Program-made: the position numbers and the translations under genes
Shown: one piece after another, positions 6,785 to 25,298 of the stretch
Position numbering within the stretch: the stretch's first letter is position 1
How the letters are laid out: the number at the start of each line of letters is the position of its first letter
IMG/VR virus record: IMGVR_UViG_3300022178_001099
Coordinates: 1-28,078 of that record
DNA: 28,078 nucleotides
Source of the DNA: a virus
Taxonomy: Duplodnaviria; Caudoviricetes
Strand: one strand, 5' to 3'
Notes under the pieces: model-generated
What the model saw: the letters and a program-made list of their open reading frames with translations, nothing else
Databases searched by the model: none
What the model was told of the DNA's origin: nothing

Positions 6785-7858
6785 CTACGCCACTAATTGC
6801 CAAGACTTACTCGCATCCAAGCCCATCCATTTGCTCCACTCTGCGTAGTAGTGGCGCATACCAACTTCGTCGTGAATGGTACTGTTCTCGTGCCGCCCGT
6901 GCAGGATGTTGCGAGGTTCGGTTCCCTCACGCATTGTTGTACCCTGACCTGCTACGCCTATGAGGTCTTCGTGTAGGTTACGCCCAAACGGACCCCAGAT
7001 AGAATTGTGGTGCTTGATACGAGTCTGCCGTTCCTCTGGGGTATCTTTTTTAAGACCGTAGCCGCGAAACTCAATAAGAACCTTGTTTGGCCCAAGAGGT
7101 GTAACGCTATCACTTCGGTAAGCACTACCGCGCAGGTTAAAATTAAATCCGGGGAACAGGTCAACCATGTACCACTGATTGGGTGGCAGGTTAGGGAAAC
7201 TAAGCTCTCCTCTATCCTCAAAGCCGTCGTACTCCTCGTAGTTAACGGTGAAGCTGCTAACATTAACATGTCCGTTATCGAATGGTATGTTCTTTCTAGC
7301 AAAGTATTCATCGTTAAACCCTGACACACGATTAAAGTAGTGCATAAAATCGTGGTAGAACTCGCTGTTGGTATCGTGCCACAGCTTGTAGTTTGTATCT
7401 ATTACTGCCTTGTGGTAGTGAAAGACTTCCATTTCTTCAGTGTCGATAGCATCCGCAATACAGTCAAATGCACCGCCTGTCCACTCGTCTACACTTTGCG
7501 TTGGGTTAGGGTCTAGGGTAACCCAGACCATGCCGCCATGTTTTACTTCACAGTGTAGCTGTGGTTCAACTGTTACGATTGGTGCAGCTACAGTACCCGA
7601 AGGTGAATTAAATCCGTAGTTACGGTATGCCCTAACACCATCTTTGGTATTAACTGCAATTACATTTTGTCTAGCAATTTGTGTGGTCCTGTAGTTACCC
7701 TCATTGTACATCTCAGAGATGTGGCACATAGGAACCCACACCTTAGAGAAGATGTTTTCTTGTTCCTGCTTGTAGATGTCGTGACTAGAGTAGATTGAAG
7801 AACTGATGTGTTCTACTTTGGGAGTCTTAGTCCAGTCTCTATGATTACGTGGTGGCAC
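6785..7858 (-). CDS. msmA: Ring-hydroxylating (Rieske-family) oxygenase alpha subunit, MsmA (methanesulfonate monooxygenase)-like, lacking Rieske 2Fe-2S ligands; auxiliary metabolic gene
   Basis: N-terminal Y...IY..E.E.IFSKVW...CH.SE...G.Y; mononuclear-Fe motif NYKLWHDTNSEFYHDFMH and later EDL; C-terminal E.GMRHYY..W. No CxH...CxxH. The oxygenase family is secure; MsmA identity is from recollection of the family. Confidence 0.75.
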   Translation of the reverse strand: MPPRNHRDWTKTPKVEHISSSIYSSHDIYKQEQENIFSKVWVPMCHISEMYNEGNYRTTQIARQNVIAVNTKDGVRAYRNYGFNSPSGTVAAPIVTVEPQLHCEVKHGGMVWVTLDPNPTQSVDEWTGGAFDCIADAIDTEEMEVFHYHKAVIDTNYKLWHDTNSEFYHDFMHYFNRVSGFNDEYFARKNIPFDNGHVNVSSFTVNYEEYDGFEDRGELSFPNLPPNQWYMVDLFPGFNFNLRGSAYRSDSVTPLGPNKVLIEFRGYGLKKDTPEERQTRIKHHNSIWGPFGRNLHEDLIGVAGQGTTMREGTEPRNILHGRHENSTIHDEVGMRHYYAEWSKWMGLDASKSWQLVA

Positions 7859-10054: not shown

Positions 10055-10381
10055 CTACTTCTTCTTGACCTTACCGCCGTGCATCAGTTTTTGAAAAGAC
10101 CCTTTTGCACCTGCCTTCATAGACCCCTGTTTTCTCTGTATCTCCGGGTTTCCACCTTTTCTAGCCTTTAGTTCTCTGTCTGTAGAGATAACTTTTTTTG
10201 CTAGAGCGGCTGTACTTTTCGGTCCTGCTACTTTCGCATTTTTATTCATCAGTGCATCTAGCCGTTTTCTTTTATTAGGAAGTAGTGAACCTCTTATTGA
10301 GTTGTATTCTGCTGTTAAAGATGAGCTAAGAGGTTTCTTAGTTTTTAAAGCGTTATTAAGCTTTTCCATAAGTGTTGCCAT
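10055..10381 (-). CDS. Basic hypothetical protein ending in a HGGKV motif
   Basis: 108 aa, Lys-rich, RBS GGAG; AT-richer than its neighbours. Confidence 0.65.
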   Translation of the reverse strand: MATLMEKLNNALKTKKPLSSSLTAEYNSIRGSLLPNKRKRLDALMNKNAKVAGPKSTAALAKKVISTDRELKARKGGNPEIQRKQGSMKAGAKGSFQKLMHGGKVKKK

Positions 10382-13120: not shown

Positions 13121-16100
13121 TTAGTACGCAGGTGTTACACCTAGCATCTTGTCTAGGAAGCCGCGTTCATATTTTTGTTCGGGTGCAGGTTGACTTCCTA
13201 CTGCGGCACCTGTTGCATCCTGTAAGGGTGCTTTTGCAGAAGCTGGTTTTGGAGAGGTCTTCCTACGGGGGATGTTAACGGGCTTATCTACTACCGCGTT
13301 TTTAAACAATATTGCTGCGTAATCTTCTGCCATAATTCTGTTTATAGAATCATAGGCTGCAGCTAATTCTTCAAACGGAATTTCATTTACATCTTTTCTG
13401 TTCCAAATCTTTCCTACTTTTAAATCTAAAGTGTCATATTCAGAATCTAATTTAAACAGGCTGTTTTCTTCAAAAAACTGTTTCCTGTTTGCAGGAGTTA
13501 AATAACTTTCAAATACTCTTCGTGTTTCATATAGAATATTCTGTTTTGCTTCGTTTACAAGGTCAGAGCCTGTCACTTTTCCAAATGAATCTTCAAAACC
13601 TTTAGGGGGTCTTTGTGACTTTTCAAAAGCTCCCGCTACACTTTCTATATTTCTTCGTAGATAAGCTTGCCCTATAACAGCCGCAATGTACCTATGTTCG
13701 GCATCTCCGCTAGTTCGTTTTTCATCCTTTGCTTTACTATACGTTTCAAAATCTATTTTATCATCTATATATCTAGTAATGCTGGGTAATCTTGCGTATA
13801 ACCCTTGCATTGCAACCAACGACCTACTAGGATTAAAGTTTGGGTCGTTTGCTAGTATGTCTGCCCCCTTGTGCATTAATTCATGGGCTAGAGTTGCAGT
13901 ATAAGCCATAGGGGGTTTTAAATAATCCGTGCTAGGTCCACCAAATCCGGCGGGACTTCTCATTAGTATAGCACTATTCGATACGTCTGCTCTAAAGTCT
14001 TTAGTGGATTTTGCACCCATGCGATTATTTAGAGAATCTGTATAATTTATTTCACCATCTTCATATACAGGTGAAGTGTAGGGTTCTCGCCCATACTGAG
14101 CGTATAACCCCATTGCATTCCTGTGGTAAGGGTTAGCCACGTTCTCACCCGGTCTTAAAGTTGTTACAGTATCACTTAATGTTCTACTATCTCTAGCCGC
14201 TGCTTGAATAAGCTTATTAAAGTTTGTTTTACCTAGTATGTCAGCAAAAACCTCTGTGTCACCGAATTGAACTCCCTGATTATACAACTCTTCTTCAGCT
14301 TTAGATTTAAAAGTAGGAGTGGCTGATTTTCTTTTATATTGTTCTTCCTGAAGATGGTCAATTTCTAAGTCTTCGCTAGTCATACCATACTTGGAAGTCC
14401 CAGATATACCTACTGCTGCTTTTACGTTGTGCGAGTGTACGCCCCCGCCACTATGAAACTTTTTTCTAGTGATAAAGCCACCCCCTGCGGCTTGAACCGG
14501 CTCCTGCCCATTCTCTGCTATGCGCTGTTCGGTTTTCCGAATGCCTCGTTTATTAATCTTCTCTAGGCGGTCTTCGCCAATGATATCTACTAGGTGTGGG
14601 GCTACGGTTACTTCCCCGCGAGACACCGCAATATCAACGAGGTCGGAATGCCGTTCAAAGTCTCCTGTTGAAAGACCCCTGCGAACCGCTTCTTTCTGGG
14701 CATCCATAATCATTTTGCGGATGTCCTGCTCTCCCGCGAACTCGACAGCAGCCGCATTTATAACGTAGGTTCCCTCTTTAGCCTTCATAGGACGGTCGTC
14801 AGCGACTTTACCGGCTTCGGAGACCTGTGATGGCGGTCTGTCTACAAAACCGCTCTGTGAGGCTTGTACCCCCGCTGGCGGGGTTCCCATGGCGTAGCCG
14901 GGTACTTTACCGCCATATTTAAAATCCCCTGCTTCTACATCATCATCTGCGGTAGAACCAAAATTACCACCACTATCAAAGTCACCGCCGCCGCCGCCGA
15001 CACCATAATCACCGCCACTGTCTTCACTGGTAACAACACCGGAACCATATTGGTCTCTAAGTGCTTTGTCTGCTGCTGCCTGCCTTGTTCTTTCTTCTAC
15101 GATTCTTGCTGTCTCTAATGCCTGCGCCTTGGAAGCTTTTGCTGCCTTGATATTATCCATGAGCTTCCCTTGACCTTTACGGGTGGCACTCAGGATTGAA
15201 CCAATCTCAGCTTCACTTAAACCATGCTTGGCTGCTAAAGACTTAGAGTGACTGGCAAGGCCCATCATGGAAGTACGACCGTACCGGTCCATAAAAGCTC
15301 CGGTATCGGTGTAGCGTCCACCCCCTGCAACTTCCCCGCTGTAACCGGCTTCCTCGAAAGTGGTGGCACCCCTGCCTGTGTAGTCAAAACCAAAGTTTCG
15401 GTTTCCAAAGGTACTAGGGACAAAGCCCCGCTGCACAGCTTCCATGTTCTTCAGGGTTTGATTGTCTAGGCCGCGCATGTTTCCTGTGTAGGTGAAGGTT
15501 CCGGCTTTGCGGGTTATGCCTGTTGCTCCGGTGCCGCTTCCAAACGACATGGAGAAGCCAATGTCCCGGTCTGCTGCAAATCTTCCTGCTAAACTGTCAT
15601 CTTGAAAACGGTCTTCAGTCATGCCACTCACTGACTCTCTAAAATCAGTCATGTTGGCCCGTGCAACAGCCCTATTGTGCGCCATATCCGCGTACTGAGT
15701 AGAGTGAACCGCATCTGCAACCATACCAAGGATACCATCAGGCCGTGCGCTGATGTTGCCAAAAGCGTTTCTTACGGTGGTGGTGCTGAGTACGGCAGAG
15801 CCTACAAGACCTAGCATGGGGTTTGCAGCTACCAAGGCTCCCTTTATCCCAGTCTTAGCATCGGGCTTTGTAACGCCCTCGACCATGTCGGTTCCAACGC
15901 GGTCAGCAAGCCCCTTCGTTCCCGCTGTAAAGTCTATGTCTCCAAACCTGCCAGATGTGAGGGGTTCCATGACGTTAGAAATAAAGTCTACCCGGTCTGC
16001 CATCCCCGGCGGCTTTTCTCCGGTTATGTAGTCCGAATAGGACTCGTATTTATCGTAGGCATTAAAGTTATTGTACTCTATCCCCGTCCCGCCCGGAAAC

Positions 16101-16384
16101 ATCGAAGTTTTTCCCTGCGCTATTTCTTCAGGAGTGGCCTGTATATTTATACCCCCCAAGTCATTCAGGGCATCATCCTGAGTATCGCCGCCGTCGTCAC
16201 CACCACCACCAGCTATCCCATAATCCTTCAACTTGGTAATGTCATCGGGGTTGACAATATCAATACCAGTACCTGTCAAGCTATCCACATCTAGGGCCTG
16301 ATTGTAGAAGTCAACAGGACCCTTGGAATACTGGTCATAGCTAATAGATTCTGGGTTAAAGAACGTTGGTGGTTTAGGTGCCAT
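13121..16384 (-). CDS. Large internal virion/ejection-type protein with C-terminal HEXXH metallopeptidase-like domain
   Basis: 1087 aa, Gly-rich; GGKV...ADD.P....EG.YVINAAAV and V..GE....P..V..IG..RLEKIN modules seen in ejection/tape-measure proteins; TLAHELMH at 13871-13885; between portal and scaffold. Confidence 0.6.
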   Translation of the reverse strand: MAPKPPTFFNPESISYDQYSKGPVDFYNQALDVDSLTGTGIDIVNPDDITKLKDYGIAGGGGDDGGDTQDDALNDLGGINIQATPEEIAQGKTSMFPGGTGIEYNNFNAYDKYESYSDYITGEKPPGMADRVDFISNVMEPLTSGRFGDIDFTAGTKGLADRVGTDMVEGVTKPDAKTGIKGALVAANPMLGLVGSAVLSTTTVRNAFGNISARPDGILGMVADAVHSTQYADMAHNRAVARANMTDFRESVSGMTEDRFQDDSLAGRFAADRDIGFSMSFGSGTGATGITRKAGTFTYTGNMRGLDNQTLKNMEAVQRGFVPSTFGNRNFGFDYTGRGATTFEEAGYSGEVAGGGRYTDTGAFMDRYGRTSMMGLASHSKSLAAKHGLSEAEIGSILSATRKGQGKLMDNIKAAKASKAQALETARIVEERTRQAAADKALRDQYGSGVVTSEDSGGDYGVGGGGGDFDSGGNFGSTADDDVEAGDFKYGGKVPGYAMGTPPAGVQASQSGFVDRPPSQVSEAGKVADDRPMKAKEGTYVINAAAVEFAGEQDIRKMIMDAQKEAVRRGLSTGDFERHSDLVDIAVSRGEVTVAPHLVDIIGEDRLEKINKRGIRKTEQRIAENGQEPVQAAGGGFITRKKFHSGGGVHSHNVKAAVGISGTSKYGMTSEDLEIDHLQEEQYKRKSATPTFKSKAEEELYNQGVQFGDTEVFADILGKTNFNKLIQAAARDSRTLSDTVTTLRPGENVANPYHRNAMGLYAQYGREPYTSPVYEDGEINYTDSLNNRMGAKSTKDFRADVSNSAILMRSPAGFGGPSTDYLKPPMAYTATLAHELMHKGADILANDPNFNPSRSLVAMQGLYARLPSITRYIDDKIDFETYSKAKDEKRTSGDAEHRYIAAVIGQAYLRRNIESVAGAFEKSQRPPKGFEDSFGKVTGSDLVNEAKQNILYETRRVFESYLTPANRKQFFEENSLFKLDSEYDTLDLKVGKIWNRKDVNEIPFEELAAAYDSINRIMAEDYAAILFKNAVVDKPVNIPRRKTSPKPASAKAPLQDATGAAVGSQPAPEQKYERGFLDKMLGVTPAY

Positions 16385-16601
16385 TTCTAACTATTGCCTC
16401 GTGGTTATCCTTCAACTGAAGGAGCATTTCCAGTAAAGCCGCTTTCCCCTGCAGTTGGCGCAGTTCCGACTCCGATTGTGCCGTTACCAGACCCCTGTGG
16501 GTCTGTTCCTTCAGGATTTGGAGATACTCCTCCAGCCCCTGCCATATCTTGGGCTGGGCCAGCAGCGGGGCCACCAGCTTCGCCTGTTCCTTGCTGTACA
16601 T
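16374..16601 (-). CDS. Small helical protein (75 aa) overprinted on the portal C-terminus
   Basis: MYSKEQAK...W..LEEYL..L.......L.......ELRQLQGKAALLE.LL.LK resembles the small gene that commonly follows podovirus portals. Confidence 0.65.
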   Translation of the reverse strand: MYSKEQAKLVAPLLAQPKIWQGLEEYLQILKEQTHRGLVTAQSESELRQLQGKAALLEMLLQLKDNHEAIVRNGT

Positions 16602-18531
16602 TAGCCTGCATTCCTTGTAACATTTTTGCGTAGAGTTGTGCTTGGTTTGCATCGTTGACTAGGCTGTCAGGGTCTATGTCCTGTGAGATAGCCAGTTCGC
16701 GCATCAGGTTTGGTATCTTGATGAACGGAGCTAACATGGGGTTGGCGACGGTTTGCAACAGGGACGTTAGCCGCTGTGTGCGAACCTCTTTCTGCATCAC
16801 GGCTGCAACGCCGCGTGGTTTAATTTCTAGGTCGCCTTGGATGTCTTCTGCTTCCTCGTTGAACTGCATGTTCCACTGGAAGTAGGCTTCGCCCAAGGGC
16901 TTCAAGAGCATATCGTCAATGTTCTTGATGACAGTCTTCATGGACAAGCCAGCAGAACCCATGAGCATGGAAAGGCCAGCGGCGGTTCGCCCAGTTCCGG
17001 TTACACCTGTCTGTCCGTGCATGATTGACGGGATGCCCGTCTCTTCATCAGCAAGCTGACGACTAATCTGGTACATCTGCAGGTTTTCCCCCGCCGTGTT
17101 CGGAAACTTTAAGCCGTTGATGGCTGTGCCTGTAACACCAGACTGCCTACGGAATATCTTTCCGGGGAAGATGTCCATGTTCTGTCCCGGCACGAGACTA
17201 GCTTCATCTACGTCAAAGACGAGGTTGCCTGCAAGGGCGAGGTTGTCGATAGCCATACGAACGTGACCGTTCATTAGCTTCTGAGCATCTTCCATGTTCT
17301 CCGCTACACCGACACCCCAGAGTTGATAGGGGTTGACTTCGTATGGGAAGACTTGATAGGGGATACGGGCGGGTGTGAAGGGATTTAAGACGCAGCGTAT
17401 AACCATGTTGCCGCAAACCCAGACGTTTACCTGAAGCTCGTCGAACTCCGACATGTCTCCAGCACCTTCCAAGCCAACTTCTTCGGCTAGTTTAGCATCT
17501 AAGACACCCCAGTATTCCAAGACCTCGTAGCGGTTGCCTTGGTAGAATGGCTCTGTCTCGTCCTCACGAATAGTGTCCTCGTAGTACTTGTCCTCATAGT
17601 TCGGACCTTTAGCTAGGCACTCTTCGATTGCTTCCGAAATAAAGTGTGGTCGTTTTATCAACGCACGAAGCTGTTGACGGTTCATGCGGTGACGCTCTAT
17701 GACGTACTCGCAGTCATCTATGCTAGTAGCAGAGGGGTCAGGGTGAAAGTCCCATATCGACACCATCTCAATCCGTGGAACGGTCTTCTCATCCGGGTTA
17801 TAAACCCGTTCTCCCTCTTCGTTACGCTCCCACTTGTGGACCCGCTTGTAAAAGTTGAATGGTCCCTTTACAACGCCAGTTCCCAAGAGGGCTGCTTCGA
17901 ACACGGAGTTCCGCATCACGTTCACAGCGTTTGTGTCAGTGAGTTGGTCGTGTATAACTTTTTCCATCCGCAGGGCTGCTTCTTGAGCAGGCTTGAGTTG
18001 CGGTTCGCCTATCCGTGCCGGACCCTCTGCTAGGTCTAGTTGTCCATACTTGGACTCTAGGCCACCTAAGAAGTCACCACCGGGTTTTGCTTGCAAGGCA
18101 CCGGGAGCTAGTTCGCGACCATCTCCTGAGAACCCATAGGGGTCTTGTTCAGTTGCCTCGTCCAAGGGGGTCTTCATGTGGGCAAACTCCGCAATGCCTT
18201 CCGGCACGGGAGTTGATTCCACAACCAAGGGGAACTTCTTGTTTGCGAACAGGATGTCTATTATTTGACCGAACGCAGCAAGAACCTTTGTCTTGGTAAT
18301 TCGAACAAAGACCTTGGACCGTTCGGAATCACGATACTGAGTTGTAGAGTCGTAGATACCCCTGAAGTTTTTGTATGCCTGTAGCCAGCGTTGCTCGTGA
18401 GCAAAACGACCAGTTTCAGCATCCCTAAACTTTGAGGTTACGTATCCTGCAAGACCCGGCATCTGCTCATCAGGAGCGTGTACCGGAACTACCGTGTCAT
18501 CATCCGGTTGGAGAAAGTTATCTTCAGACAT
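16405..18531 (-). CDS. Portal protein
   Basis: 708 aa; RS..FV..TK.KV.AA, GTGV.KGP, DF.PDP.A, PYE..P...WG.GV.E.M.D.Q, RTA.G.SML motifs of P22-like portals. Confidence 0.92.
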   Translation of the reverse strand: MSEDNFLQPDDDTVVPVHAPDEQMPGLAGYVTSKFRDAETGRFAHEQRWLQAYKNFRGIYDSTTQYRDSERSKVFVRITKTKVLAAFGQIIDILFANKKFPLVVESTPVPEGIAEFAHMKTPLDEATEQDPYGFSGDGRELAPGALQAKPGGDFLGGLESKYGQLDLAEGPARIGEPQLKPAQEAALRMEKVIHDQLTDTNAVNVMRNSVFEAALLGTGVVKGPFNFYKRVHKWERNEEGERVYNPDEKTVPRIEMVSIWDFHPDPSATSIDDCEYVIERHRMNRQQLRALIKRPHFISEAIEECLAKGPNYEDKYYEDTIREDETEPFYQGNRYEVLEYWGVLDAKLAEEVGLEGAGDMSEFDELQVNVWVCGNMVIRCVLNPFTPARIPYQVFPYEVNPYQLWGVGVAENMEDAQKLMNGHVRMAIDNLALAGNLVFDVDEASLVPGQNMDIFPGKIFRRQSGVTGTAINGLKFPNTAGENLQMYQISRQLADEETGIPSIMHGQTGVTGTGRTAAGLSMLMGSAGLSMKTVIKNIDDMLLKPLGEAYFQWNMQFNEEAEDIQGDLEIKPRGVAAVMQKEVRTQRLTSLLQTVANPMLAPFIKIPNLMRELAISQDIDPDSLVNDANQAQLYAKMLQGMQANVQQGTGEAGGPAAGPAQDMAGAGGVSPNPEGTDPQGSGNGTIGVGTAPTAGESGFTGNAPSVEG

Positions 18532-18539
18532 GTAGAGTC

Positions 18540-18764
18540 CTAGCTAAAGTAGTTTCTGTCTTCTGCCATTGTGTTAAATGAAGCTTCTACAGTAGGCTTG
18601 GTTTGCTTCTTGGGCATATCTTCTGTGATTGGGCCTGTCTTTACACGAGTGTTAAACTCAAGACCTTCACGGTATAGTTTTGATGCACCCTCATCTGTAT
18701 CGACGCTGACTTTATCAGAGTTCATTACATAGGCTGCACCGTAGTTGTAGTTATTGTCTGGCAT
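18540..18764 (-). CDS. Hypothetical protein (74 aa), probably virion-associated
   Basis: RBS GGAGG; located between the recombinase-like gene and the portal gene. Confidence 0.7.
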   Translation of the reverse strand: MPDNNYNYGAAYVMNSDKVSVDTDEGASKLYREGLEFNTRVKTGPITEDMPKKQTKPTVEASFNTMAEDRNYFS

Positions 18765-18773
18765 CTCTGCCTC

Positions 18774-20414
18774 CTAGTTAACGGAAAGAAAGCCTTGGTC
18801 TTGGGCAGGGGCGGCTTGAGGAACCCTGTCCGGTTCTGGAATCATGCCAGAATCCTGTGTGGCAACTCGTGCCATTATGTCTTCGTCTGTTTCCTCTACC
18901 TCTCTGGCAGGGATAAAGTCTGTTCGCGGGGGTGGCATCTCTGATAGTTCGGGACCAGCAGTAGCTGTCGAGTCCAAAATCATGGGCAAAGCTCCGGCAA
19001 CACCTGCTCCCACACGTGCAGCTAAACCAACTCCTTCTATAGCCAAGTCCCGTGCCATTGCTGCGCCAGCCCCTTCGGGGTCACGAGCAGCTTCGTAAAG
19101 ACCCGTTCCAAGTAGGGCAGCCCCACCAGCTTTAATTGTAGTGTCAATTTTCTTACCTATGTTTTTAACCAGACCATCCCAGTCCAACCCTTTACTAGAA
19201 AGTTCTTCTTGTAAGTTGCTAGAGGTTACATTCTTGTCTATGTTGTCTGTGGACTTGAGAGTAGTGGGAACCTCTTCACGAACCGGGAGTTCGAAGTAGC
19301 CTTCATATCCTGCAGTCTGGGTTGTGATACGGGTTTCTGGCATCGGAATCTTGGATTTAATGTCAAACCCTGCTTCCTTGGCAGCGTCCCCCCAGAAACT
19401 AGCAAACATATTGGCGTTCTGGCGGTCAACTTCACCAACTGCACCCGGAAATGCCTGCTGGTAGGTTGTGAGTTCTCCTGTACTGCTCTTACCGGCTGAC
19501 TTGAGACTACGACCCTGCAAGAAAGCTAGGCGGTCTTGGTCTACACCAATTGATTGTCCCACGGTAGCGTGGATGTTACGCAAAAGGGCCGAACCCTTCT
19601 TACCTGTAAAGCCAGCAGGGGCTAGTGTATCAAAATATTTACCCGTAGCAGCATCAAAGGCAATGTCTTTTACCTTGACATCCTTTAAAAGGTCTGTCAT
19701 ATCGCTAGATGTAACTACCTTGCCGTTTGGTTTAACAAAGAAGTTTTCTTTGTTTCCTGAAGCTAGACTATCCTGTAGGATACTGTCTGCAATAGGGTTC
19801 AAGGGGATATTTACAGGACGGCCCTTTGCACCCTTGGTTTCTGCCTCAATATAGATAGCACCACTATCAGGTTTATATGCAGTTACCTGAAGACCAGCAG
19901 CAGCGTTAGGACGAAGGCCAGTATTGAGGTTAAAAATAATTGCTTGGGCAGTGGCTTTGGTATTAGGGTTGTCAAGATACTTAGAAACACCTGCGAACAA
20001 CTGGCTCATCTTAGCTTTATCTGGGTTGATTGCAACCTCTGATGCAGCTTTAGCAGGTTCGCTACGCCCAAAGATACGATTGTTTACATCTGTGTTCGGG
20101 GCTTTGTCTGGTAACAGCTTGTATTCTGGTGTGTCAGGACCGACGGACTCTTTTAAGGTTAAACCAACTTGGCGAAGGTTTTGCATCGCTGTCTTGACGG
20201 TCGATGTATCTTCTGTACCTTTAAAAGTCTTGGAAAGAAGGGTAACCCCTTCAGGGTCCTTTTCGAACAGCCGTAGGGCAGAGCCGGGTTCGTCTGCAAT
20301 GTCTTTAAAGAATTGTAATGAAGAAGTAACAAACGCCTTCCCCCGCTTCGACTTCTCAGCGTAAGCTTCAGCAACTTCACGAAGGGTTGCGGTTTTTGGG
20401 TCGAGGTCTGCCAT
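18774..20414 (-). CDS. Tyrosine recombinase-fold protein with altered active site and long C-terminal extension
   Basis: NTGLRP (R168), ETKG (K194)...V.IPL, ALLR (R279; H replaced by A), LQGR (R302 at the H/W position), TTY (Y318); start overlaps the terL stop (TAATG). Confidence 0.72.
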   Translation of the reverse strand: MADLDPKTATLREVAEAYAEKSKRGKAFVTSSLQFFKDIADEPGSALRLFEKDPEGVTLLSKTFKGTEDTSTVKTAMQNLRQVGLTLKESVGPDTPEYKLLPDKAPNTDVNNRIFGRSEPAKAASEVAINPDKAKMSQLFAGVSKYLDNPNTKATAQAIIFNLNTGLRPNAAAGLQVTAYKPDSGAIYIEAETKGAKGRPVNIPLNPIADSILQDSLASGNKENFFVKPNGKVVTSSDMTDLLKDVKVKDIAFDAATGKYFDTLAPAGFTGKKGSALLRNIHATVGQSIGVDQDRLAFLQGRSLKSAGKSSTGELTTYQQAFPGAVGEVDRQNANMFASFWGDAAKEAGFDIKSKIPMPETRITTQTAGYEGYFELPVREEVPTTLKSTDNIDKNVTSSNLQEELSSKGLDWDGLVKNIGKKIDTTIKAGGAALLGTGLYEAARDPEGAGAAMARDLAIEGVGLAARVGAGVAGALPMILDSTATAGPELSEMPPPRTDFIPAREVEETDEDIMARVATQDSGMIPEPDRVPQAAPAQDQGFLSVN

Positions 20415-22135
20415 TAGTATCCAAACGTAGCATCATAGGGCTGGAAGGCTTGGTCTTTGATGCCCTGCAGTTGTTTGTGTATCGAAGTGTATCCGCTGGT
20501 TCGCGTCATAACCATATATCGCAACGCATCGTAGGCATGGTCCTCTGCTCTCGTGTCTACATCTTCACTGTTAGTTTTGGAGAGTGGAATGCCCGATAGC
20601 TGTGCAATGATATGCTTACAAGTGGAAAAGATTCGCATACGGGGTTCATTAGAGTGGGGGTCGTCAGCAAGCCGCCTGTGTAGTTCCATTTTTCCTTGTA
20701 GACGATTGCGGTCGGATGGAGTCCACCTAACCCCGGCCCTCATCATAGTCTCTGCGATAGAAGGGCCGAATCCGGTCTTGTTCCAGCATGAAGAGTCTAG
20801 GACCGTATAATGAGGTAACGGGTCCAACTCCTCACATTCTAATATTTTATCAGCTAATTGCTCTGCTGTCAAGTGTTTTACGTAAAGTTCGCGATAAATC
20901 CAAATATTGTTATCCCAATCAATAGCACCCCACAGGACACACGACGGCGACGAGTAGCCATAGTCGGCGGCACGTATGCGAGGCCAGTTCGTGGGAAGCT
21001 CAAAATGTTCGACCACATGTCGTACCCTCGAAAACTCTGGGAAGGCCGCTCCCTCTGCCACATCCCAGTCCCCTTCTAGGAGTCGTCTACGCTCGACATC
21101 CGGGAGTGACCGAAGCATGGCCTCATACTGACCATCTGCCATCAGGAAGGGGTTGTCAGTCAACCTCGCTGGGATAAACTTGCGGTAGAATAGGGGTTGA
21201 CCTGCTTTTGGATGGTTGTCAGGCCACACAAAGGTTCGACCTGTTTCTAAGTCTTTAGCCCCGAACGCCTTGTTCTGTTCGTGGGCATCAATGTACATCT
21301 TCTTGACCCACCAGCCGCCAACACCACCGGGGTTCGCTGTGCAGCGCATGGTTAGGTTCTTCTGTAGTTCAGGGTCCGTCGAACGAAGACGAGAACGAAG
21401 ATAGTCCCAGACGTAGCTGCTGGGGTACTGTGTTATTTCATCTATGCCAATCCAGTTAAACGCCTGTCCCTGAAAACGGGTGACATCCTTATCTCTGTCG
21501 AGATAGGTAAACCACATGGTTGCACCGGATGGAAAGACCCACGTTGACTTGGACTCTCTAAAGTGTGCGCCGGGAAATGCCTTGGGGTATAGCTGCTTCG
21601 ACTTGTCGATGAGTTCCGTTAGTTCGTCGAGCGTTCGCCGGAGAAGAAGGCCACGATGGTTGGGATTATGGCAATAGCGTAGGGGGTCAGCAAGTAAAGC
21701 AAATGACTTGCCACCGCCAGCGGCCCCGCCATAAAGTACATCCTGTTCGGAAGCCGAAAGAAAGTCCTCTTGAGGTCCTTCATTAGGTTTGAAAATGACA
21801 GGGGTATCATCTATTAGGTCCGTAACTGCTGGGGGTAATACGTCTAAGTCTGCAGCATCTACCACACGGGTCTTGTTTCCGTTTAGGGCATTCTCTACAT
21901 TCTTGGCTGCGCTGGTCAGGTCACGAACCTTGCGACGGTTCCGGGCTGTCTTCACATCCTGCTTGACCTGCTTCTTCTTGGCATTCTTTAGCTTCATCTG
22001 CACAGAACGCCGCGCACGTTCCCGGTCACTAATCTTGTGTGTGGTCTTGGGTTCGCCGGGTCTTTTCTTAGGTCTGCCGACCTTGCCTAGGTCTTCTGGG
22101 TTCGGGGGGACTAGGACTCTTTTGCGTGGGGCCAC
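20414..22135 (-). CDS. terL: Terminase large subunit
   Basis: Q motif, Walker A YGGAAGGGKS, Walker B IGIDE, TANPGG, nuclease ADYG and DHAYDALRY; ~110 aa basic N-terminal extension. Confidence 0.95.
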   Translation of the reverse strand: MAPRKRVLVPPNPEDLGKVGRPKKRPGEPKTTHKISDRERARRSVQMKLKNAKKKQVKQDVKTARNRRKVRDLTSAAKNVENALNGNKTRVVDAADLDVLPPAVTDLIDDTPVIFKPNEGPQEDFLSASEQDVLYGGAAGGGKSFALLADPLRYCHNPNHRGLLLRRTLDELTELIDKSKQLYPKAFPGAHFRESKSTWVFPSGATMWFTYLDRDKDVTRFQGQAFNWIGIDEITQYPSSYVWDYLRSRLRSTDPELQKNLTMRCTANPGGVGGWWVKKMYIDAHEQNKAFGAKDLETGRTFVWPDNHPKAGQPLFYRKFIPARLTDNPFLMADGQYEAMLRSLPDVERRRLLEGDWDVAEGAAFPEFSRVRHVVEHFELPTNWPRIRAADYGYSSPSCVLWGAIDWDNNIWIYRELYVKHLTAEQLADKILECEELDPLPHYTVLDSSCWNKTGFGPSIAETMMRAGVRWTPSDRNRLQGKMELHRRLADDPHSNEPRMRIFSTCKHIIAQLSGIPLSKTNSEDVDTRAEDHAYDALRYMVMTRTSGYTSIHKQLQGIKDQAFQPYDATFGY

Positions 22136-22138
22136 GGG

Positions 22139-22402
22139 CTAGGCTTTTTCTGCACTACTTGCAGCTTTGCGGCCTTTACATGCTGACATCTTCTTCACGC
22201 CGCCCTTGGGAGTGCCATAGCGGTAGCCGGGAACCTTGCCGCCCTTGGCTTTGGCTCCACGTATCTTGTCGTACATGGATTTAATCTCACCAGCTTCAGC
22301 ATCGCTGTCTGCTTCTTTGAGCATCTTTTTTATAAACTCTTCGTACTCTTGATTGCTCATGTCCTGAATGTTGCTTCGCATTGCGTTTCTTGCTAGTTCC
22401 AT
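22139..22402 (-). CDS. Small hypothetical protein with GGKVPGY and RKAAxSAEK motifs
   Basis: 87 aa between terS and terL; RBS AAGG. Confidence 0.7.
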   Translation of the reverse strand: MELARNAMRSNIQDMSNQEYEEFIKKMLKEADSDAEAGEIKSMYDKIRGAKAKGGKVPGYRYGTPKGGVKKMSACKGRKAASSAEKA

Positions 22403-22406
22403 AACC

Positions 22407-22808
22407 TTATCCGTCTATGACGACCTCTTTCTTGGGTGGCAACAGGACAACCCCGTGGATTGCCTGTACGTTGTGGTTCATTGTTTCCTGTTTTGCGATA
22501 CCAACGCGGTTCAGGATGGATTCTGCTGCCTTCATACGAAGGTCGTCCCCGCGTTCGATGTCAGGAGCCGTTACGAGGCTTGCTAACTTGTTCGCGGCTG
22601 ACAGGGAGTGGCCTGCTAACATGGTTTTGGTACGCTCTATAATCTCATCGGCTAGGCGTTCCTTTAGCCAGCCCACGGATTTGGGAGAATAGCCCACGAT
22701 TTCGGCAGCAACGGACATATTGCCGTTGTTTTCGAACAGGACATCCAAGAACTGCTCCTGTTTCTCTGTCAGGGCAGCTTTTTTATTCGTCTGGGGTAGT
22801 AAGTTCAT
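22407..22808 (-). CDS. terS: Terminase small subunit
   Basis: N-terminal HTH LTEKQ.QFL......GN...AA...GYS; C-terminal RMKAAESILNRVG and GVVLLP.K; upstream of terL. Confidence 0.8.
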   Translation of the reverse strand: MNLLPQTNKKAALTEKQEQFLDVLFENNGNMSVAAEIVGYSPKSVGWLKERLADEIIERTKTMLAGHSLSAANKLASLVTAPDIERGDDLRMKAAESILNRVGIAKQETMNHNVQAIHGVVLLPPKKEVVIDG

Positions 22809-22814
22809 GGGGAT

Positions 22815-23015
22815 TTAGGTTTGTAGGGCCTCTGGGGCTGTACACTTCCACCTTATGTTTAGGTCGAACAGGTTTACCTCTATCGCAAACTCTGCCATTT
22901 CGTCGATACGTCTCATGCAGTCTACCTCATTGGTGTAGGGACCTCGTGTGTCACTCAACTCAACACATTCTTCGGGTGCTGCAGCTAGGCATATCAGTAA
23001 AATAGCTTCGAACAT
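22815..23015 (-). CDS. Small Cys-containing protein with hydrophobic N-terminus (66 aa)
   Basis: Start reassigned to ATG 23015 (RBS CAGGA, downstream of the promoter): MFEAILLICL...GPYTNEVDC...WKC. Confidence 0.7.
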   Translation of the reverse strand: MFEAILLICLAAAPEECVELSDTRGPYTNEVDCMRRIDEMAEFAIEVNLFDLNIRWKCTAPEALQT

Positions 23016-23049
23016 GGGGTTTTCCTGCGAACCGTTGTCATACCCTTGT

Positions 23050-23078
23050 ATTATGGCGGCTTTTGCAACCTCTGTCAA
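23050..23078 (-). promoter_or_regulatory. sigma70 promoter TTGACA-N17-CATAAT driving the packaging/structural operon
   Basis: -35 at 23073-23078, -10 at 23050-23055. Confidence 0.75.
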
Positions 23079-23128
23079 CCTGTTTTCAGCATGGTTTATA
23101 GAAAAATAACCAAAAATGAAAAAACCTG

Positions 23129-23157
23129 TTGACAAATCGGGAATTTGACGCTACTAT
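23129..23157 (+). promoter_or_regulatory. Divergent sigma70 promoter TTGACA-N17-TACTAT with A-rich UP element
   Basis: Near-consensus hexamers, 17 nt spacer, A-tracts at 23100-23124. Confidence 0.75.
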
Positions 23158-23163
23158 AGGACC

Positions 23164-23253
23164 TAGTCCTGCCGGGGTAAACCCCCTATGTACCCTGCAG
23201 GGTCCCCTAATGGTTCGCAAAATGGTCCCCGCTGGTTCTCCGGTGGGGTTTTT
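23164..23253 (+). ncRNA. Candidate ~90 nt phage small RNA
   Basis: Bounded by the + strand promoter and a + strand terminator; internal hairpins; no RBS-led complete ORF inside. Confidence 0.5.
23227..23253 (+). terminator. Rho-independent terminator
   Basis: CCCCGCTGG-TTCT-CCGGTGGGG-TTTTT; two G-U pairs form only on the + strand. Confidence 0.75.
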
Positions 23254-23629
23254 CTGTTGGGTACCCTAGAGGTTCGCAAAATACCCTGTATGGATAACCT
23301 TAAAATTACAAAAAATATGTCGGGTTTGCATAGCAAGTGCCGGGGGGGTGGGGTGTCCCTCGCGTACCCGCGCACAGCCAAATATTTTTATAATTAGGAT
23401 ACCTCACCGAGACCTTGACGCATACCGAAAGCACCGGCAACCCCGCGAACACATACGAAACCCCTCGAACATGCGCCCGCACCCGCGCCCGCGTTGCCTG
23501 ATTTGTCATGCCGGTTACTATCTGGGGTGGCCTTTCGGTTAAGGGAATATATACAAACACGGCTAAACCACACCGCCGAATAACCACGGGATTACCGCCA
23601 GTTAACCCGCATTAATATATGCCGGACAT

Positions 23630-23658
23630 AAAAAGACCCCCGCCGGATAGACGGGGGC
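23630..23658 (-). terminator. Rho-independent terminator ending the early region
   Basis: GCCCCCGTC-TATCC-GGCGGGGGT-CTTTTT. Confidence 0.8.
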
Positions 23659-23713
23659 AAGGTTATGGGGCTGTTCAAGGGAGGAAAGCCAGCCCCGACG
23701 GGTTCGCGGGAGG

Positions 23714-24103
23714 CTACGCTACAAGCCTATATTTCGGCTTGGTTCCCTGCCGGTTACATTCGATGGTATAGCCCCGCTGCCGAAGCTGTTGAATGCCTTG
23801 GTGGACGCTGACCGGTGTCATGCCGGAATGCCTGACAAGGGTGTCGCGGTTGACAGCATAGGTTCGCGAAGCTAGGCAACCATGCAACCGGCCAAGCTTG
23901 CTATTAGGCTTGGGTCGTTTGATGCGGGTCTGTTCCCCATTCCGGTCTGCAAAGATATCGGCAAGGAACCGCCTTGCGTCGGCTTCGCGTTCGGATGCCA
24001 TTCGGGTTAGGATATTGTGCCGCTCATCCATGCGGATTGCTTCCTCTATCCGGGCTTCGATGCTATGCAGGTCGGCTCTTAACTTCGATGGTAAATTAAA
24101 CAT
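23714..24103 (-). CDS. Winged helix-turn-helix DNA-binding protein
   Basis: C-terminal L...L......V.R..L....GMT..SV...I.QLR..GY.I......Y.L is HTH_11/BirA-like. Confidence 0.7.
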   Translation of the reverse strand: MFNLPSKLRADLHSIEARIEEAIRMDERHNILTRMASEREADARRFLADIFADRNGEQTRIKRPKPNSKLGRLHGCLASRTYAVNRDTLVRHSGMTPVSVHQGIQQLRQRGYTIECNRQGTKPKYRLVA

Positions 24104-24140
24104 GGTTTCGGTTCTTTCCGCCCCTCAGGGCTTTGGTGGT

Positions 24141-24221
24141 TCAAACAATAAAGACCGCATATATTATAGAGATTATCAAGAGAACGGTCAGGCTCCGATA
24201 AATTACATATAAGGCTTCCAT
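24141..24221 (-). CDS. Tiny hydrophobic membrane peptide (26 aa)
   Basis: MEALYVIYRSLTVLLIISIIYAVFIV; leader GAAAGATAACCA-ATG resembles those of neighbouring early genes. Confidence 0.5.
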   Translation of the reverse strand: MEALYVIYRSLTVLLIISIIYAVFIV

Positions 24222-24272
24222 TGGTTATCTTTCATATCACAAAGAAGATTAAGAAAAGCAGCAACGATTCAA

Positions 24273-25298
24273 TCATGCTGCCACCGACAACCAAGCGTCA
24301 CTATTCAAGACGCTGGCAACCTGTTCATTTCGCTTGCGCTGCACATCATAAACCTTGGCCGTTTTCTTGCCGGTCTGGTATTCCTTGCCGGTCTCAAGAT
24401 TGGTGACGGTCTCATTCGTATGAGTTGCCCAGTGGGTCAAGGCATTATAGGCCGCCCACATTGTCCCGCCCAGTTCGGGCTTTTCCTTGTCGAACATGTA
24501 AAGCAAGGCATTCATTAGGCGTTCATTAACACCCTCAAGAACACCGGCTTTAACAGCCCGCCCAGTCTTGGCGCAAATGGTCTCTTTCAAGATGTTCGCA
24601 AACTGTTCGTCGGATAACCGCGAACCCTGCCAAGCCCGCATTTGGTCGCGCTGGTTCGTCCACATATCAAGAGAGCCGCCCGCCTTGGTTATCATGGCTT
24701 CAACGCTCAGATTCTTGGTATGCTTTGCTTTTTGGTGATATGACTTTTCACCACCGAAAACCAAGGTATTGCGGCAAAGGTCACGATATGCCCCGCTGAA
24801 TATTTGAAAGCACCAAGACTTGTCTACGCTGTTAAAGATATCCATGCGGCACCGAACCAAGTCGCTGCTATCCCCTACGGTCGTTTGCAGGTCGTTAAAG
24901 TGAATAGTGCGATGCGCCCGAAGCCCACCCTCATAGAGCCGGTCAACAACCGACACATCACCAAGCGGCAAATCTGATTCGCTCAATAAATCGGCCTGCT
25001 TTGCAAATAACCGGTCATGGGGTTCTAATTTATAAGAACGGCCTATTGGGGCGACGTCCAGAACATCACCGGTTGCGCTATTCTCTAGTGCAAAGTAATC
25101 GGGCATAGGCACGTTTTGGCAAATGGTCGCTGCGCCTTCCTGCCGGACAAACTGCAACGCCTCAATCGGGATTTTACGAACCGCCCCAATCTGGTCGAAC
25201 AAATCGACGTTCGCGGGGTCGTTGTGTTCAAACGTATAAGTGCCGCCGCCCCGATTGACAAAGCTGGCTTGGTTTTCAATTGGTACTAAATCGAACAT
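24273..25298 (-). CDS. DUF932/DUF945-like phage protein (341 aa)
   Basis: Y...PH...F, IFNSVD.S..FQ...GAYR..C.N.LV.G, KHT, GTMWAAYNALTHWATH motifs; start reassigned to ATG 25298 (RBS GAAAGGA). Confidence 0.75.
   Translation of the reverse strand: MFDLVPIENQASFVNRGGGTYTFEHNDPANVDLFDQIGAVRKIPIEALQFVRQEGAATICQNVPMPDYFALENSATGDVLDVAPIGRSYKLEPHDRLFAKQADLLSESDLPLGDVSVVDRLYEGGLRAHRTIHFNDLQTTVGDSSDLVRCRMDIFNSVDKSWCFQIFSGAYRDLCRNTLVFGGEKSYHQKAKHTKNLSVEAMITKAGGSLDMWTNQRDQMRAWQGSRLSDEQFANILKETICAKTGRAVKAGVLEGVNERLMNALLYMFDKEKPELGGTMWAAYNALTHWATHTNETVTNLETGKEYQTGKKTAKVYDVQRKRNEQVASVLNSDAWLSVAA

Follow-up and report, generated by a model that had tools for sequence, protein, structure and literature searches.

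The interval between terL and the portal gene in the phages described here is a slot for cassette exchange: the core of the gene that fills it, called X below, is replaced between the terL stop codon and the tail of X itself, without the flanking DNA. In the window, by which we mean the whole 28,078-nt stretch analysed (positions 1 to 28,078 of the IMG/VR record IMGVR_UViG_3300022178_001099), residues 1-377 of the X product can be modelled as a two-domain tyrosine recombinase of the Xer/lambda Int core type. The reading that we favour, with a confidence somewhat short of an even chance, is that X may be a DNA nicking-rejoining effector which is loaded into the head and injected, and not a lysogeny integrase; we infer packaging, catalysis and target alike.

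Gene X, its neighbours and its carrier phage

The genes around X follow the order terS, terL, X, a 74-aa ORF (s74) and portal; after these come the gene of a 1087-aa protein, one that probably encodes the scaffold, and that of the capsid (Table 1). X does lie between terL and portal, as the preliminary description had it, with the 74-aa ORF standing between X and portal; look-alikes of this small ORF, as judged by eye, are present in HTVC033P, a phage without X. The ATG of X overlaps the terL stop codon (TAATG), and translational coupling of the two genes had been proposed. The 1-nt overlap is there in the window, but it recurs in only 48 of the 165 closed loci, nearly all others starting X 1-7 nt further on, and X also has a promoter-like site of its own upstream.

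The carrier can be placed among HMO-2011-type podophages because of three features: a family A DNA polymerase (PF00476) with two CxxCxGxG motifs, found in record G001, a twin that contains the window sequence; an HMO-2011-like head module; and the relatedness of terL, which is 48-58% identical to that of Roseobacter CRP phages, HTVC033P and HMO-2011. Few phages in the sea are as abundant as those of this type; their subgroups without a recognised integrase have been called obligately lytic (excerpts of PMC9038755). An X-like gene between terL and portal was absent from the three cultured relatives inspected, and a tblastn search with X against 50,697 phage records gave no match, so that no cultured member was found; nor did the c2 allele of X (see below) or the 1087-aa protein match cultured phages by tblastn. 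Two further observations concern the carrier genomes. The family A DNA polymerase is laid out as two overlapping ORFs (an exonuclease of about 195 aa and a 530-aa polymerase with DnaJ-type motifs) in all six genomes (G001:C1:18300-20391 on the minus strand, with equivalents in G002-G006), which is either a split gene or a programmed frameshift. Positions 6785-7858 of the window encode a ring-hydroxylating alpha subunit (PF00848), which belongs to the known auxiliary genes and has 75% identity to a gene that in HMO-2011 carries the annotation methanesulfonate monooxygenase.

Table 1. Positions in the window of gene X, its neighbours and its predicted parts
Feature	Position	Strand	Basis or remark
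Gene X, 546 aa: class c0 tyrosine-recombinase core + tail	18774..20414	-	ORF list, structure model
terL	20414..22135	-	allele swaps have their left breakpoint at its stop codon
Conserved small ORF (s74), 74 aa	18540..18764	-	
Portal	16405..18531	-	
Post-portal variable protein, 1087 aa, ERGFL tag + HExxH motif	13121..16384	-	
Sigma70-type promoter-like site, TTGACA-17-TAAAAT	20844..20872	-	inside terL, 430 nt upstream of X
Core-binding (CB) helical domain, predicted, about aa 1-120	20055..20414	-	approximate limits; model aligns from residue 7-9 with CB domains of XerA, Tn1549 Int, lambda Int 75-356
Catalytic domain, predicted, about aa 125-350	19365..20042	-	model and motif position
R168	19911-13	-	role predicted by motif position
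K197	19824-26	-	role predicted by motif position
R279	19578-80	-	role predicted by motif position
H282	19569-71	-	role predicted by motif position
R302	19509-11	-	role predicted by motif position
Y318	19461-63	-	role predicted by motif position
Acidic low-confidence tail, aa 378-546, with Gly/Ala-rich stretch	18777..19283	-	right-hand homology arm of swaps
GFL tag, aa 541-543	18786..18794	-	putative head-loading/sorting signal

Predicted fold and active site

The tyrosine-recombinase fold proposed for X in the preliminary description was recovered above chance, by a match to a PHROG integrase (E 1.7e-5) and by the AlphaFold model. The model of X, which belongs to class c0, is confident to about residue 377, except for the lysine loop and residues 306-318, and is not confident beyond. 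Foldseek matched it to Tn1549 Int, XerA, lambda Int and XerH with E values of 5e-5 to 5e-4 (VIA Z 13.9-12.1 over 157-264 residues for this group), and XerA, Brujita Int, Tn1549 Int and the lambda Int core align to both domains of X at Z 12-14. Sequence profiles gave less: PF00589 scored 14.7 and 17 bits, below its curated cut-off of 27.1, and an HMM search of PDB sequences with X returned only XerH (E 0.06). A model of class c3 is also a tyrosine recombinase with Int/Xer ranked first; profile comparison of c0 with c3 gave an HHalign probability of 1%, and the fold is common to both.

A special kinship to topoisomerase IB (TopIB) and telomere resolvases, which had been suggested, was not supported, since the c0 and c3 folds both rank Xer/Int first. 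TopIB reaches Z 8-9.6 against the X models in the catalytic domain only, whereas Int/Xer match both domains; among protelomerases, TelA ranks 41st against c0 by Foldseek (E 0.02) and lies outside the top 50 by Z, and TelA and TelK score Z 4.5-5.2 against c3. TopIB, TelA and TelK have the same catalytic fold and phosphotyrosine chemistry, but X scores lower against them and has a CB domain of the integrase type. With simple tyrosine recombinases (XerA 4a8e and 5hxy, Brujita Int 5vfz, Tn1549 Int 6en2, the lambda Int core 1p7d, XerH and Cre) X shares the CB and catalytic fold at Z 10-14 and 10-15% identity, as well as the R-K-R-Y order. It differs from them in having no HxxR histidine, mostly Arg at the H/W position, a tagged tail of 170 aa, a place in the head operon, no att or dif site that we could find, and optional, swappable N-terminal modules of 135-145 aa.

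The canonical pentad of the superfamily is R-K-(H/K)-R-(H/W) (excerpts of PMC2965224). Both canonical histidines are replaced in X, as had been noticed, with ALLR in place of HxxR and LQGR in place of LGH. R168, K194, R279 and Y318, listed earlier as the retained residues, are all present in X, but the invariant lysine is K197 (48/48 in class c0), K194 being Lys in 42/48 members of c0 and in 87/120. Conservation in class c0 is 48/48 for each of R168, K197, R279, H282 and R302, and 47/48 for Y318; one early column count took in five tail-only matches that belong to other classes. Across 24 class representatives both catalytic arginines are present in 24/24 and the tyrosine is aligned in 20/24; His occupies the HxxR position in 0/24 classes (Tyr or Lys in 12/24), and the second histidine position (302) holds Arg in 17/24 and His in 7/24. 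Within each of the classes c0-c4, R/R/(H or R)/Y is invariant except for one gap. R/K/R/Y are kept in related contigs, and because the catalytic residues are conserved, X is likely to be catalytically active.

Loss of the HxxR histidine means neither a dead enzyme nor a TopIB, since archaeal integrases without it work, SSV1 with KxxR and pNOB8 with YxxR (excerpts of PMC8371274). These SSV1-type (R..KxxR..Y) and pNOB8-type (R..YxxR..Y) enzymes resemble X in this respect, and the SSV1 catalytic domain matches it at Z 11.8; they insert at att sites, whereas for X we found no such site and no split gene. The integrase fold has also been reused for purposes other than integration, in SPbeta MrpR and phi3T SroF (excerpts of PMC10516654; for SroF, 10.1101/2025.11.27.690993), and X might by analogy be a non-catalytic DNA-binding regulator or DNA organiser. 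The fold in common (SroF Z 8.8; MrpR Z 6.0) and the loss of one canonical histidine are in keeping with this. The repressor MrpR, however, lacks both catalytic arginines in the account excerpted from PMC10516654, and X has both in all classes, together with Lys and Tyr, which makes such a role highly improbable.

Occupancy of the terL-portal slot and exchange of its alleles

The uncultured marine phages with this gene are a widespread group, and we found 255 relatives. Grouped at a core identity of 45%, the 128 distinct proteins of the slot make up 24 classes; HHalign could not connect about half of these classes to c0, and membership of the unlinked ones therefore rests on motifs, BLAST chains, weak Pfam matches and the c3 fold. 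A profile search of the whole library gave 103 clusters, in which 54 further proteins of at least 500 aa span 518-797 aa, 34 of the 54 lying outside the 24 classes. On viral contigs the terL-portal interval is occupied in 165/165 closed loci (duplicates and loci selected by X included) by a 517-851-aa ORF that starts no more than 12 nt from terL. Selection of 80 loci solely on their terL gave 66 in which the ORF of the slot was complete, spanning 14 classes, and 14 without a readable one. In metagenome contigs terL lies upstream of X in 51/51, and s74/portal downstream in 49/49 where there was room to see; X is fixed in the head operon between terL and portal among related loci. The context of distant relatives amounts to one locus in the same slot for P0139 and gene fragments only for P0155, with none found for P0142. 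Each of six near-complete genomes has exactly one member of the family by profile search, and PF00589, run against five genomes, picked out this gene alone in three and nothing in two.

Phages with a terL 97-100% identical to that of the window have four core classes among them, and in nine sets one and the same terL C-terminal sequence goes with differing classes. On a terL tree, obtained by a quick search and not a careful one, the class labels need 56 changes, where the minimum is 21 and the shuffled mean 70.7. DNA identity stops at the terL stop codon and returns at varying points inside the X tail, so that unrelated cores sit in phages with flanks 96-99% identical; a c3 junction at 20415 was seen again in X15 and X17, public runs from a single sample. 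Two loci were inspected upstream of terS, and there the DNA goes with the backbone. Some X proteins have an additional N-terminal module of about 135-145 aa, and these optional modules are shuffled without regard to the core. They are of at least three kinds and are fused to several X classes (L004:6168-6570, L016:3303-3740, L093); a search of the Atlas with the commonest one gave no usable match.

The pattern of exchange bears on two explanations. The main idea of the preliminary description was a virion-delivered, Cre-like site-specific enzyme that circularises or protects the phage's own termini, and the CB and catalytic domains as in Cre/Xer, the head-operon position and the tag of X would suit it. 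Yet with unrelated cores between nearly identical flanks, all of these would need to read one terminal site; no recombination-type inverted repeat was found in X or at its ends, and the DNA upstream of terS went with the backbone in the two loci examined there. It is hard to reconcile the swapped cores with a fixed, site-specific task at the termini or the pac site of the phage itself, and we give the idea of a circulariser or end-protector little credence. The second explanation takes X for a selfish homing-type nickase, possibly virion-delivered, that cuts co-infecting relatives and spreads by gene conversion. An always-filled slot with competing alleles, a sharp breakpoint at the terL stop and an embedded promoter would all fit, but the co-conversion signal is absent, the 3' end of terL being not consistently closer in same-class pairs at matched backbone identity, and to our knowledge no homing tyrosine recombinase has been described. 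We regard it as very improbable.

Integrase/att cassettes are commonly exchanged among related phages, and X could be a lysogeny integrase, ordinary or virion-delivered, with an attP inside the swapped cassette as in SSV1 and another attB for each allele. The closest folds are simple integrases and Xer, no second integrase was found in these genomes, and some HMO-2011-type phages, such as CRP-3, do integrate (excerpts of PMC9038755). On the other hand, the known int genes of these phages (subgroups I and III; CRP-3), which belong to the same phage group and superfamily as X, sit upstream of the replication module, the only place that the excerpts of this survey mention for integrases; they gave no tblastn match to X at E 0.01. 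X has the constant head-gene neighbours counted above. Neither an att site nor a repressor was found next to it: the genes at X leave no intergenic space for an attP, six genomes contain no tRNA gene, the 128 slot genes lack a T-loop motif, and none of the classes c0, c1, c3 and c4 shows a stretch that is synonymously frozen (in class c2, 15 scattered frozen codons appear among only 12 close sequences). The region 16000-25000 of the window holds only four inverted repeats, all short and imperfect and none in or beside X, and neither a palindromic tel site nor a recombination-type repeat. Scans of species genomes, in which the hosts are poorly sampled, gave nothing by terL, and by portal eight MAG contigs with phage-like gene sets but neither X nor a host junction; such searches can miss short att cores and unsampled hosts. 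X departs from canonical phage integrases in the HxxR/H-W motif and scores below the Pfam cut-off; loss of the HxxR histidine is known in working integrases. We consider a lysogeny integrase quite unlikely.

Transcription, tail and possible role of X

The promoter-like site inside terL is intact in 115/118 loci, ten loci with short or frame-broken terL ends having been dropped beforehand. Its Leu codon is TTG in 115/115 and its Thr codon ACA in 117/118, the most frozen of 104 conserved degenerate sites (median 0.49). Near-consensus sites of this kind number only 2-7 per genome, and none occurs at the equivalent place in HTVC033P, HMO-2011 and CRP-13, cultured relatives (3/3) that lack X and are distant by terL. 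As the site is conserved, X is probably the first gene of the head-operon transcript and not reliant on terL translation alone; the site may serve the portal and capsid genes instead, and a promoter for host RNA polymerase is in itself no proof of late timing. Contigs from the RNA runs X16 and X18 cover parts of the c0 core, with DNA carry-over possible, and give neither start site nor level. Similar sites were seen elsewhere. A conserved near-consensus promoter, TTGACT-18-TATAAT, lies in the 3' end of the DNA polymerase gene (G001:C1:18328, with equivalents in G002-G005), the same device as in terL. At window positions 23050-23157 and 23227-23248, sigma70-type sites stand back to back, with an inverted repeat (23073-23086 / 23121-23134) made up by their TTGACA boxes; the plus-strand site of this pair faces a terminator-like hairpin about 70 nt away, possibly yielding a short RNA near the genome end, and similar divergent promoter pairs are found upstream of terS in G002 and G004.

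X had been credited with a Gly/Ala/Pro-rich tail of about 200 aa ending in QGFLSVN. The ending is as claimed and a tail with such a stretch exists, but it measures about 170 aa (pLDDT <50), is acidic (net -13), and contains 31% Gly, Ala and Pro against 25% in the core, rising to 46% in residues 420-490. The similar ERGFLDK of the 1087-aa protein is present, but 8 residues before its end, and this protein, earlier called ejection-type, is not a member of the classical ejection trio, which lies beyond the window (182/664/1580 aa in G001). A tag of the form [GS]F[LIVM] is found within the last 25 aa of 104/128 slot proteins, whereas 3.5% of internal windows contain it. The six genomes were also searched for it in 291 ORFs other than X, and 10 have it, of which five are the gene of about 180 aa that heads the trio, four the post-portal protein and one another gene. 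The tag, which is three residues long, is missing from 24/128 X proteins and from 29/54 full-length distant relatives.

By size and order only, the trio of about 180/660/1580 aa is likely to be the counterpart of IVP-B/C/D (sizes and order from excerpts of PMC4819975); the same arrangement exists in HTVC104P, and the IVP-B-like gene of about 180 aa gave no family match. In post-portal ORFs the tag is C-terminal in 33/75 and often internal in the rest. Hydrolase_2 or a pesticin-type lysozyme is matched at E<=0.01 by 12 of the 36 scanned out of these 75, with 8 above cut-off, and such cell-wall hydrolase/lysozyme domains in its counterparts point to the post-portal protein being in the virion. 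This protein is a second polymorphic locus, in which a common domain ending in AxGGF is combined with variable add-ons (Hydrolase_2, pesticin-type lysozyme, HExxH, DUF6973; e.g. L156:8067-10805 and L165:6509-8929). It shares a GGKV-type motif, which may be a further signal for sorting or processing, with small basic ORFs (window 22139-22402 and 10055-10381). One MAG includes a contig of a more distant phage (L244:6970-11356), without X, on which three post-portal ORFs follow one another, all of them with a GF tag close to the end.

In the effector reading, X would lead the head operon, transcribed by host RNA polymerase from the terL-internal promoter, and the tail with its GF[LI] tag would sort the product into the prohead, like the capsid-targeting sequence of T4 internal proteins. 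X would then exit with the ejection proteins, alongside the genome, and early in infection it would clamp DNA, cleave it through a 3'-phosphotyrosine at Y318 and rejoin it. Its target would probably be the DNA of the host or some other foreign DNA, or else X would cut with little specificity; a fixed site of the phage genome is probably not the target, because cores swap without flanking DNA. The diversity of alleles might then reflect an arms race, X acting as an effector in a conflict between phage and host. Three things suggest, by analogy, the logic of T4 IPI/Alt and of MuF-borne effectors: the gene is never lost, it has many exchangeable alleles, and its tag is common to likely internal proteins. 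T4 IPI-III and Alt, MuF-fused effectors and the passenger domains of IVPs are accessory proteins of variable make-up that a short tag or a carrier directs into the head, from which they are injected (excerpts of PMC9026906, PMC5512222 and PMC4819975). The analogy is one of logic only: there is no sequence link, and the putative tag of X is C-terminal; the word "recombinase" has no occurrence in the main text of PMC5512222.

A fuller form of this reading, possible but in our view rather doubtful, has an active tyrosine recombinase loaded by a C-terminal tag common to ejection proteins and existing in dozens of specificity alleles, exchanged between the terL stop and the tail, that would hit host or competitor DNA (or integrate the genome) before phage gene expression. 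It counts against loading that a folded two-domain protein of 377 aa would have to unfold to pass the portal. A predicted complex between the major capsid protein and the 45-aa tail scored 0.00, which carries no weight either way.

X might instead act inside the cell, as a resolvase or swivel coupled to packaging, which would rid concatemers of Holliday junctions or supercoils before the terminase gets there, its tail tethering it to the prohead or portal; T4 endonuclease VII has a comparable role. The position of X directly after terL with overlapping stop and start, its co-transcription with portal and the presence of one such gene in each of six near-complete genomes agree with this, and tyrosine recombinases can relax DNA non-specifically (excerpts of PMC8371274). 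However, a housekeeping job leaves at least 24 exchangeable cores unexplained, cultured relatives package their DNA without X, and the tag is common to muralytic and IVP-like proteins, which act from the virion. We thus consider the swivel unlikely.

X is distinct within the tyrosine-recombinase superfamily by motif, architecture and context, and no description of its family, or of a capsid-delivered tyrosine recombinase in tailed phages, was found in the literature as judged by titles and abstract openings. As X scores below the Pfam cut-off and is yet sometimes auto-labelled integrase (JGI names), lifestyle calls for such phages can err in both directions. Recombinases whose active sites are altered can be drawn from its divergent cores, of which there are dozens. 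Should X travel in the virion, it would be a tyrosine recombinase delivered from the capsid, and its GF[LI] tail would become a candidate for the signal by which internal proteins of podophages are loaded.
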